IMG/VR virus record: IMGVR_UViG_3300050034_000081
Length of the DNA stretch: 64,000 bases
Source: a virus
Strand: one strand, 5' to 3'
Shown piece after piece: positions 6,894-12,965 of this stretch; position 1 is the first letter of the stretch, and each line of letters opens with the position of its first letter. Below the pieces are notes generated by a model. It was not told the origin of the DNA and made no database searches. It saw nothing but the letters and a program-made list of their open reading frames with translations. Both the position numbers and the translations under genes were made by a program.

Positions 6894-7046
6894 ATAAATG
6901 GAGATAATATTATATTATTTCTCTTGATAAGTAGTTATTGTTTATCAAAAAATACTTGATAAGCAATAGCAACTTATCGTCCTAATAACTATATAATCCT
7001 TACATATGGGAGGGTGTTTGAAATACAGTACACACAGAGGTAAAAT

Positions 7047-10414: not shown

Positions 10415-10759
10415 ATGACCGAAGATTTTAAACCATACATTAAAACTATTAAAATTAATGCCAAAACTGATTATAATAAAATGTTTTTAAATGTCACGCG
10501 AAATTTAAACAATAAAACTGCTAGAGAACATATTAATAAATTAAAACAAAATATGGAAGGAATTGAAAATTCAGCTTATCATTTTATTGATAATTCAACC
10601 ACTAAAGATCCAAAATATTCCAAAACTGCGTATACTGTAGTTGACGGAAATCATCGAACTACGGCAGAATATGAAAAAGCAATTGAAGCAAATATAGAGT
10701 TTATTATTAGACCTACCATTTATGATTGGGGTTATTTTGATTATCAAATAGTGCCGTAA
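10415..10759 (+). CDS. Hypothetical protein, C-terminus interrupted by IS insertion
   Basis: The last codons (QIVP*) derive from the IS left end that starts at 10745. Confidence 0.55.
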   Translation: MTEDFKPYIKTIKINAKTDYNKMFLNVTRNLNNKTAREHINKLKQNMEGIENSAYHFIDNSTTKDPKYSKTAYTVVDGNHRTTAEYEKAIEANIEFIIRPTIYDWGYFDYQIVP

Positions 10760-11973
10760 AACCCCTAGCTTTAGCTATGGGGATACAAGGCATAAATTGC
10801 CCACTATCATTTTCTCTCATAAGGGTGTTAAAATAAATCATGGTAAGGCACTACCATTAATGTCCTATTTGGACGGTGCCAAGAGAGGATATATTGTTAC
10901 TCACTTATAAGTTCAGAATTAAAGATGGTGGCTCTAAGAGTCACCATCTAAAAAGATGGGCTAATGCAGTAAATACAGTTTGGAATTACTGTAATGAAGC
11001 CTCGTACAATCAATTAAAGAAATATTCTAAATGGTTAAATTATTATGATTTAAATAATTTAACTAAAGGATCTAGTAAAGAATTAAATCTAAACTCAGCC
11101 ACTATACAACAGATTTGTAAAGAATATACCACAAAACGTTATCAATTTAAAAAACAAAAACTTAATTGGAGAACTTCAAAAGGATCAAGGAGATCTCTTG
11201 GATGGATTCCATGTACAAATCAAAACATTAAACTTAATAAAGATGCATTTTTTACATTTAGTGGTAAGACATTTAAATTTTGGAAAACAAGAGAGATTCC
11301 TAAAGATATTCGCACAATATCCTTAAATGAAGATTCTCGTGGACATTGGTATATTAACTTTGCGGTTGAAGTAGATTTTAAAAAACAAACTGGTAATTCT
11401 GAAATTGGTATAGATTTAGGATTATCTACAAATGCCACTCTTTCAGATGGTCGTAAATATAATAGAGAAAATATTACTAAATATTATGAAAAACAATTAG
11501 CAATGGCTCAACGAGCTAACAAGAAGCATCAAGTAACTAAAATATATGCTAAAATCAAAAATATTAGAAAAGATTGGAATCATAAAACTGCCAACAATAT
11601 ATTAAAAGATTCTAAATTGGTAATAGTTGGAGATGTATCTTCATCTAAGTTAACGAAAACTAAAATGGCTAAATCTGTCCTCGATGCTGGATGGTCCCAG
11701 CTACGCTCAATGCTTGCATATAAAGCTATTAAGCTTGGCATTGAGTTTAAAGAGGTTAACGAGAGTTGGACAAGTCGCACTTGTAATGTTTGTGGAGAAA
11801 TCGGCGAACATCAAGGTCTAAGCGGCTTATCCGTAAGGCAATGGGAATGTAAAAGTTGTCATACACTTCATGATCGTGACGTGAATGCAGCTATTAATAT
11901 TCTCAATGTCGGTCTTGGACATAAGACTCTAATTAAGGGAATCCCCCGGCTTTAGCCGTGGGGAGGATGTCAA
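10745..11973 (+). mobile_element. IS200/IS605-family element, tnpB only (IS1341-like, non-autonomous)
   Basis: Left end after TTAT: CAAATAGTGCCGT-AAAA-CCCCTAGCTTTAGCTATGGGG-ATACAAGG, near-identical in layout to IS608 LE as recalled; right end GAAT-CCCCCGGCTTTAGCCGTGGGG-AGGATG-TCAA (TCAA 11970-11973); no tnpA. Confidence 0.92.
10876..11955 (+). CDS. tnpB: TnpB RNA-guided endonuclease
   Basis: TYKFRIKD N-terminus, IGIDLG (RuvC-I), CNVC/CKSC zinc ribbon, HDRDVNAAINI (RuvC-III); likely start TTG 10894 after GAGAGGA. Confidence 0.93.
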   Translation: MPREDILLLTYKFRIKDGGSKSHHLKRWANAVNTVWNYCNEASYNQLKKYSKWLNYYDLNNLTKGSSKELNLNSATIQQICKEYTTKRYQFKKQKLNWRTSKGSRRSLGWIPCTNQNIKLNKDAFFTFSGKTFKFWKTREIPKDIRTISLNEDSRGHWYINFAVEVDFKKQTGNSEIGIDLGLSTNATLSDGRKYNRENITKYYEKQLAMAQRANKKHQVTKIYAKIKNIRKDWNHKTANNILKDSKLVIVGDVSSSKLTKTKMAKSVLDAGWSQLRSMLAYKAIKLGIEFKEVNESWTSRTCNVCGEIGEHQGLSGLSVRQWECKSCHTLHDRDVNAAINILNVGLGHKTLIKGIPRL

Positions 11974-12060
11974 TCTCTATGCAATCAATTATAAAAATAC
12001 ACGTAGGAGATTTACTGTATTTAATGAAGTTGGAGAAGAGATTGGTCCATCTTAAAAAAT

Positions 12061-12464: not shown

Positions 12465-12494
12465 ATGCAAATAAGTCCTATATTTTGTTATAAT
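12465..12494 (+). promoter_or_regulatory. Class A phage promoter
   Basis: ATGCAA, 18 nt, TGtTATAAT, ATATATG. Confidence 0.75.
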
Positions 12495-12532
12495 ATATAT
12501 GAAAACAATTATGTTTTCTATTGGGAGATGAA

Positions 12533-12694
12533 ATGACCTTAATGGAAAGTGATAGGCAGTTGTTTGTTTTTGCAACCAATCAATTAAATTTAGAAGCCGA
12601 AGAACTTCAAAGAGATTTGAATCTTTCAATTCAAAGCGCAATGCGTCTGGCGAGAGAACTACATCCTGGATGCATGATTGCTTTGCAAAATTAG
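12533..12694 (+). CDS. Hypothetical 53-aa protein, possible HTH (not in ORF track)
   Basis: MTLMESDRQLFVFATNQLNLEAEELQRDLNLSIQSAMRLARELHPGCMIALQN; GGGAG RBS. Confidence 0.6.
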   Translation: MTLMESDRQLFVFATNQLNLEAEELQRDLNLSIQSAMRLARELHPGCMIALQN

Positions 12695-12712
12695 ACATTT
12701 TTTTGTTATAAT
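12683..12712 (+). promoter_or_regulatory. Class A phage promoter driving the ncRNA candidate
   Basis: TTGCAA 12683-12688, 18 nt, TGtTATAAT 12707-12712. Confidence 0.75.
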
Positions 12713-12718
12713 ATATAT

Positions 12719-12950
12719 GGAACGGTTTAGAGGTTAACCGGGTCTTGTCGTAAGTACCTCAACAGCGAAAGCGACGGAGTAAACTGGGCTAGTATAGCTA
12801 AACCTCTATAGAGTCTTCTATGCAATCTCTATAACCTTCGGGGAAATAAGAGCATAGAAAAGCTAACGTTTAAGTTCGCAAAGGGGACTAACGATTAGTT
12901 GTAATAAGGGAACCACCGACCCGGCCTATATGGCGAAACGGTGCCTTTTT
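12719..12950 (+). ncRNA. Unclassified structured ncRNA candidate (~230 nt)
   Basis: No ORF; about 44% GC by hand count; bounded by a promoter and a U-tract; several 7-8 bp complementary pairs and GAAA/UUCG/GCAA loops (see findings). Confidence 0.65.
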
Positions 12951-12965
12951 TAGCTATGGAGAATA

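Follow-up and report, generated by a model that had tools for sequence, protein, structure and literature searches.

A structured RNA as the payload of an early promoter-terminator cassette in a small clade of large peat phages

Early accessory cassettes of phages are a site of host take-over and counter-defence functions, and the functions known from them are, to our knowledge, almost all carried by proteins. In T4-type phages, small accessory genes lie among repeated modules of a terminator and an early promoter, the PeSL cassettes, and these modules coincide with gene gain, loss and replacement between relatives (PMC2839356, PMC4122927). Comparative genomics has also brought to light 10,006 viral structured-RNA candidates (PMC10690425). 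With such orphan phage RNAs and riboswitch candidates, manA and wcaG for example, the RNA described below shares a phage carrier, a place upstream of genes, a terminator at its end and an intricate fold in which the junctions are conserved and the hairpins vary. Antitermination by RNA alone or by RNA together with a protein has been described for phages and for mobile elements of Gram-positive bacteria (PMC9378689, PMC8191782); HK022 put, EAR and conAn2 are early, cis-transcribed structured RNAs that lie upstream of terminators. Terminator/antiterminator leaders and ON-type riboswitches of Firmicutes, finally, follow the order promoter, structured leader, intrinsic terminator, ribosome-binding site. 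We compare here with these systems a locus in a 64,000-nt stretch of phage DNA (IMG/VR record IMGVR_UViG_3300050034_000081), which is called the window below.

The early region of the clade to which this phage belongs is a cassette array in which a terminator, TTTAGCTATGCAA, 17-18 nt, TGTTATAATATATATG, a payload and another terminator follow each other. As in PeSL cassettes, repeated terminator and early-promoter modules flank variable payloads and mark places where relatives differ by gain, loss or replacement. Unlike PeSL, the module has the composition just given and the phages are unrelated to T4, and one of the payloads is a structured RNA instead of an ORF. In the sister cassettes the same promoter module drives small ORFs, and these payloads are often GC-rich in relatives.

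The flagged stretch is a gene for a structured RNA of ~230 nt, on the + strand and with its own promoter and terminator (Table 1); in one early cassette, this RNA takes the place of the payload between the two signals. The covariance model of the family, R1, scores it with 224 bits (E 5e-60), on the + strand only. The first-pass annotation had described a transcript that starts just after a strong -10 element, lacks an ORF, has a GC content of about 44% and ends in a U-tract, and each of these points was borne out. The promoter is of the extended -10 type (TG-n-TATAAT, scored 10/12 with the TG; hexamer TATAAT at 12707-12712), no + strand ORF of at least 30 aa lies in 12719-12951, and the GC content of the stretch is 44.6%, compared with 31.5% for the whole window and 25-37% for the four flanking ORFs. 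The high GC content is not specific evidence for an RNA, because it is shared by the ORFs that sister cassettes of relatives carry as payload. At the other end, the hairpin has the layout GG..CACCG..GCC-loop-GGC..CGGUG-CC, then six U; a simple terminator scan overlooked it because the stem is interrupted. A GC-containing hairpin directly before a U-tract is found in the window and in the homologues L011, L139 and L012, and the CACCG/CGGTG pairing proposed for it earlier is present in all lineages, with invariant pairs.

Table 1. Features of the predicted RNA gene, with positions in the window
Feature	Position	Strand	Remarks
RNA	12719..12951	+	predicted start at the conserved G, 12719 or 12720; end in U-tract 12946-51
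Early sigma-70-type promoter	12683..12712	+	-35 TTGCAA 12683-88, 18-nt spacer, extended -10 TGTTATAAT 12704-12
S1, invariant 5' segment (G)GAACGGUU	12719..12727	+	identical in all four lineages
Domain 1	12728..12808	+	closed by P1, 12728-35 with 12801-08
P1b, CCGG/YYGG	12738-41 with 12784-87	+	C/U changes at YYGG fit G-Y pairing
P2 hairpin, GAAA-capped insert	12747-50 with 12772-75	+	unrelated sequences, same place, three lineages
P3 hairpin	12788-91 with 12795-98	+	unrelated sequences, same place, three lineages
P4 hairpin, UAGAG/CUCUA	12809..12831	+	extendable to 12807-13 with 12827-33
P5, CC-UUCG-GG	12835..12842	+	CC-UACG-GG in L139; UCCU-AAAA-AGGA in L012
P6 enclosing P7	12862..12899	+	P6 12862-68 with 12892-99, bulged A12894; P7 12873-77 with 12885-89
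Invariant 3' motif GGGAACCACCGACCCGGCC	12908..12926	+	left half of 3' hairpin
Interrupted terminator hairpin, then six U	12908..12951	+	hairpin 12908-12945; U-tract 12946-51; U-rich tail in all lineages
Terminator stems	T0 12908-11/12944-46; T1 CACCG/CGGUG 12914-18/12939-43; T2 GCC/GGC 12924-26/12932-34	+	invariant pairs

The promoter belongs to a larger set. Eight copies of the 16-mer TGTTATAATATA(T/A)ATG are present in the window, every one of them on the + strand, where 0.34 would be expected; it therefore represents a phage promoter class. Its members lie at 1609, 2226, 6885, 12113, 12486, 12704, 37868 and 49627; they recur in L129-L131, L134-L136 and L139, usually with (A/T)TGCAA in front, and are thus shared clade-wide. 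Many of the transcripts that start from them open with a short 5' hairpin before the ribosome-binding site. The cassette driven from 6885 has a leader of ~150 nt with repeated TTGATAAG / CTTATC(A/G) inverted repeats (6900-7040), which could be two hairpins or operator-like sites. The motif TTTAGCTAT follows terminator U-tracts even where no promoter comes after it (12085, 12458, 12949), with near-matches at 2439, 19608 and 38129 and an exact copy in the left-end hairpin of a TnpB element (10770); it may be a processing site, a recombination joint or a factor site. Immediately upstream of the RNA, a cassette for a 57-aa ORF (12486-12718) has no terminator of its own, so that its transcript must enter the RNA, and the -35 hexamer of the RNA promoter falls within the end of this ORF. 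The RNA can consequently also be the 3' part of that mRNA.

Full-length homologues were recovered at L011:820-1051, L139:2846-3067 and L012:4400-4642, all from one phage clade. The nearest IMG/VR record, G001, carries the RNA with one G deleted. L011, reached through the 62-aa ORF downstream of the RNA, is of the same phage type, and its RNA is 90.6% identical, with the changes all in the middle; the same ORF also led to L009, L010 and L125, which hold truncated copies. L012, a 112-kb IMG/VR contig whose DnaE protein is 63% identical to that of the window, was found by the invariant 19-mer of the 3' motif, and L139 by walking from a DUF2786 protein. RNA identity between the three lineages is 58-69%, and all copies have the same promoter module in front (L011, L139 and L012 included) and the same kind of hairpin with a U-rich tail at the end.

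Further searches added little. Exact-word scans of IMG/VR returned only the near-identical G001 and L012, and a word match in L013 was rejected as chance, lying in coding DNA. A metagenome scan with an 18-mer gave 115 matches, of which the truncated copy in L125 is real and the rest are chance, mostly in DNA of more than 50% GC. The exact two-block pattern was found in none of 185,579 prokaryote genomes, a test of that exact pattern only. Nor did model R1 turn up another copy in the 334 kb of clade loci searched, L129, L131 and L133-L137 among them, or in any of five entire IMG/VR records; contigs with a homologue of the gene upstream of the RNA in L012 (P0041, P0042) stop short of the RNA position. 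The RNA family is so far found only in a small clade of large (roughly 110-230 kb) phages, and its carriers come from peat metagenomes. Because relatives lack an R1 copy and nothing was found in the prokaryote genomes, we regard the RNA as an accessory, patchily distributed payload. A case in point is L134, whose DUF2786 protein is 78% identical: it keeps a homologue of the upstream 57-aa ORF and a 62-aa ORF downstream, and has a 43-codon ORF after the same promoter, in the slot of the RNA. A different ORF-free transcript of ~230 nt was noticed in L136 (3146-3378; MFE z -2.6), running from the same promoter to a terminator within the final cassette ahead of the long operon; R1 does not recognise it, and it could be a second RNA payload.

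Is the RNA selected for its fold? The minimum free energy of the single sequence is unremarkable against shuffles (z -0.70 on the + strand, -0.35 on the - strand), and the case therefore rests on comparison, which draws on only three diverged lineages plus close variants and hence has modest statistical power. RNAalifold recovered several helices with compensatory changes from a MAFFT alignment, and R1, built from the same alignment, was used to realign five sequences. In the R1 alignment 97.7% of the cells are paired, as against 87.7% after shuffling and 32-47% with slid partners, and 18 pairs changed on both sides, as against 7.0 +/- 1.8 in shuffles (reached in 0/500) and 0-2 with slid partners; the first-pass annotation had asked for covariation among homologues, and this is what was found. 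A hand-made, segment-wise structural alignment holds 60 pairs, 22 of them compensatory and with no broken cell, and RNAalifold assigns it -55.8 kcal/mol, compared with -2.3 +/- 1.8 for column shuffles. There are 16 G-U cells among the 207 paired cells, and these fit the + strand only. The columns of P2, P3 and P5 were fitted by hand to the structure and indicate conservation of shape instead of providing independent statistics, whereas P1, P4, P6 and P7 sit in sequence-alignable context.

A contrasting view would take the stretch for what is left of a protein-coding cassette, or for a spacer that is GC-rich by chance, and would give it no function at the RNA level. The ordinary stability of the single-sequence fold and the ORF payloads next door would suit this view, which is nonetheless contradicted by compensatory changes without a broken pair across lineages. 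Conservation is also higher at the ends of the RNA than in the genes on either side: the window and L011 are 98.9% identical over its first 90 nt, 80% over the middle and 97.7% over the last 44 nt, compared with 74.9% for the upstream and 92.1% for the downstream ORF. A small conserved ORF was rejected, as no reading frame is common to the lineages. We consider the absence of any function at the RNA level highly improbable.

The fold supported by these comparisons comprises a three-way-junction domain (P1, P1b-P2 and P3), the hairpins P4 and P5, a P6/P7 arm and the conserved, interrupted 3' hairpin. The parts conserved in sequence are the junctions and the two ends, namely the 5' end and the 3' hairpin; the peripheral hairpins keep their shape and not their sequence. 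Five helices of the first-pass annotation reappear in this fold, the terminator stem among them. The helix TAGAGGTT/AACCTCTA corresponds to P1, with three compensatory pairs, one G-U change and none broken (TAGAGGTT/AACCTCTA becomes TAGGGAAT/ATTCCCTA). TATAGAG/CTCTATA corresponds to P4, in which compensatory changes arose twice independently: L011 has G-C for A-U, and L139 has C-G for U-A. The CC-UUCG-GG hairpin keeps its place across lineages with a changed sequence, and for GTCG/CGAC a hairpin at that position stood while the sequence itself is unrelated between lineages. In the P6/P7 arm, GCUAA/UUAGU and CG/CG of P6 become GCUUG/CAAGU and GAU/AUC in L012, and AGUUC/GGACU of P7 becomes AGCCU/GGGCU in L011. 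The 3' motif is identical at 19/19 positions in the window, L011 and L012, and L139 has a 2-nt insertion in it.

Other proposed pairings did not survive the comparison. A 7-bp helix CCGGGTC/GACCCGG had been thought to close the molecule; L012 and L139 keep CCGG/CCGG, the other three pairs break uncompensated, and the 5' CCGG pairs with the conserved YYGG at 12784-87 at least as well as with the 3' CCGG. Both segments of a helix TTCTATGC/GCATAGAA are missing from L139 and L012. An ACTAA/TTAGT helix was abandoned because the partner of TTAGT is the upstream GCTAA (12862-66) of P6, which becomes GCTTG/CAAGT in L012. The suggestion of pseudoknots or a conformational switch had been drawn from crossing helices; most of those are among the unsupported ones, and what is left of it are alternative pairings of the invariant 5' end GAACGGUUU, which has four possible partners, all invariant.

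The shape of the fold also speaks to the earlier idea of a 6S-like decoy of RNA polymerase. 6S RNA has a long closing stem, a large central bubble and a terminal loop, forming a rod that mimics an open promoter. The RNA described here resembles it only in length (about 200-230 nt, within a similar range) and in its signal for early, strong and probably abundant expression. The covariation-supported architecture is multi-branched, with a three-way junction, four hairpins and a 3' hairpin in place of a long rod with central bubble, and no 6S family model matched even at E<10. The decoy idea finds no support, and we give it very little credence.

The RNA is absent from Rfam 15 as a family. Rfam 15 covariance models gave no match at gathering score across the whole window and no family match in any of the three lineages; at E<10, the RNA and its two most distant homologues produced only scattered, mutually inconsistent weak matches. 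ARAGORN found no tRNA or tmRNA, and blastn of the RNA against GenBank phages found no match. The first-pass annotation's label of a novel phage RNA is accordingly upheld, also by the RNA's own promoter and terminator and by strong covariation across four lineages. Resemblances to 5S RNA and tracrRNA were rejected, being short, not conserved in L012 and without a model match. The GGCGAAG of the 3' hairpin resembles the Kt-7 sequence, and a K-turn there was rejected, since by eye the strand opposite GGCGAAG lacks the G-A pair. In comparison with the orphan phage RNAs introduced above, the present RNA is set apart by the lack of an Rfam 15 match and by its occurrence in one peat-phage clade only. 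As a family it is new, and its general kind, that of structured early phage RNAs or leaders, is known; the 10,006 unnamed viral candidates (PMC10690425) may include it.

RNA libraries are consistent with transcription. Two libraries from different studies contain contigs (12739-12908 and 12754-12908; 169 and 155 nt) that lie wholly within the RNA without mismatches, and neither run yielded a further contig identical to any part of the 3.5-kb stretch. At least half of the sampled words of the RNA are present in each of five runs from five studies; runs X27-X31, with shares below 0.2, were left out of account. Such contigs give no strand, ends or level, and DNA carry-over is possible; they are supportive of expression, short of proof. 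Runs X15 and X17 contain other pieces of the phage and not the RNA, and X18 and X20 leave 12719-12738 and 12909-12951 uncovered, gaps that prove nothing. Both contigs end at 12908, where the invariant 3' motif begins, which we note as a weak hint.

Further upstream lies an IS200/IS605-type element (10755-11975) that contains tnpB only (359 aa; Pfam OrfB_IS605 and Cas12f1-like TNB) between matching end hairpins (left 10759-83, right 11940-64). Several RNA-library runs contain contigs that match its right end (11938-11973) and differ in their flanks, so that ends of the omega-RNAs of related elements appear in these libraries. An omega-RNA runs across the 3' end of tnpB and terminates with the guide. 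Conceivably, the RNA could be a guide or omega-RNA of this element, given that its TnpB (10876-11955) is confirmed by Pfam and that the 11-mer TCTATGCAATC, which occurs just past the right-end hairpin (11976-11986, about where a guide would start) and resembles the module CTATGCAA, recurs in the P4 loop (12817-12827). Between the tnpB stop and the start of the RNA, though, lie 760 nt with two cassettes and two terminators, and neither an overlap with the end of tnpB or of the element, nor a guide, nor co-occurrence with TnpB was found. The element is unrelated to the RNA, because no TnpB lies near the copies in L012 and L139. As the P4 loop is not conserved in L139 or L012, the recurrence of the 11-mer, which is within chance, is probably accidental or derived from the module. 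Of all readings considered, we find this one the hardest to credit.

How might the RNA act? We envision that host RNA polymerase transcribes it early in infection from the near-consensus extended -10 promoter and that most transcripts would end at its own terminator, releasing a discrete, stable RNA. This RNA would then act in trans as a folded molecule, binding a protein or another partner via the conserved junctions and the 3' hairpin, and might serve an accessory role in host take-over or counter-defence, as do small proteins of the neighbouring cassettes. The terminator hairpin contributes -11 to -14 kcal/mol compared with -3 to -4 kcal/mol for either closing helix between the 5' end and the left terminator strand, so that transcription would be expected to stop by default and to release a discrete RNA. 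We favour a stand-alone, trans-acting folded RNA, with a probability of roughly 45%, because of its position in a cassette, its dispensability in close relatives and the unrelated genes downstream. Against it stand the invariant 5' end, which is pairable with the left terminator half, and a downstream gene without a promoter of the class.

These two features would be accommodated by a cis-acting leader switch, either an attenuator or an ON-type riboswitch, with the folded body as sensor, the main alternative, which we consider somewhat less probable. The invariant 5' end (CGGU or GGUU) would close the molecule on the ACCG or AACC of the left terminator half. A ligand or protein that stabilises this pairing would prevent formation of the terminator and allow read-through into the downstream genes; otherwise transcription would stop, and the 230-nt RNA would be a by-product. 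In all lineages these bases are invariant and able to pair, albeit in a weak helix, and in constrained folds truncated before the right terminator strand the 5' end pairs with ACCG in 3/4 lineages. The 5' end and both terminator strands are all invariant, as a three-way pairing constraint would predict, and in L139 extra bases in the 5' leader could pair with the UC insertion in the 3' motif. Each lineage has promoter, RNA with terminator, then ribosome-binding site and ORF, with no recognisable class promoter between, and the next promoter of the class lies 25 kb downstream in the window. Conserved junctions with variable peripheral hairpins also form an aptamer-like pattern. This arrangement recalls the Firmicutes leaders, including a conserved segment that overlaps the left terminator half and a 5' end that could compete with the terminator.

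Nevertheless, the resemblance is incomplete. The closing helix is without covariation and far weaker than the terminator, whose sequence is invariant, whereas expression platforms of leaders normally vary, and a ligand is only putative here. A covariation-supported structured domain does precede a same-strand gene, an ORF following in three lineages, but these genes do not form a consistent class of regulated genes as in riboswitches: they encode unrelated proteins (a soluble one of 62 aa, a hydrophobic one of 62 aa and one of 148 aa). L134 lacks the RNA and has a 62-aa ORF at the corresponding place downstream, and terminator-ended ORF cassettes of relatives also precede the long operon, so that read-through does not require this RNA.

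Alternatively, the nascent RNA might bind the transcribing polymerase and let it pass the RNA's own and later terminators, as in the processive antitermination of HK022 put, EAR or conAn2. The RNA does lie directly behind an early promoter and upstream of terminators, and in L012 three more terminated cassettes follow it. It bears no likeness in sequence or shape to put, which consists of two stem-loops of ~70 nt in total (PMC9378689), and departs from put, EAR and conAn2 in size, fold, dispensability in close relatives and the possession of its own strong, conserved terminator. Close relatives without the RNA share the terminator-rich layout, and we judge antitermination to be improbable. Put-like antitermination, a 6S-like decoy, a TnpB guide and the lack of a function are all unlikely explanations.

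What could such an RNA recognise? A rather speculative proposition, to which we assign a low probability, is that the RNA is a phage-borne sensor of a small molecule or of a host- or defence-derived signal that gates the early-to-middle switch, or else a decoy that disarms a host defence protein. Were it a sensor, its conserved core would do the binding, stabilised pairing between 5' end and terminator would open the way from the early cassettes to the 25-kb operon of replication and structural genes, and the RNA would be a new riboswitch class timing the early-to-middle switch of the phage. With a covariance model, a map of its base pairs and four diverged sequences available, the family is accessible to probing, mutation and direct searches. 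Placed in an accessory slot, a structured RNA whose junctions are conserved is a defined candidate for an RNA-based effector or a phage transcription switch.
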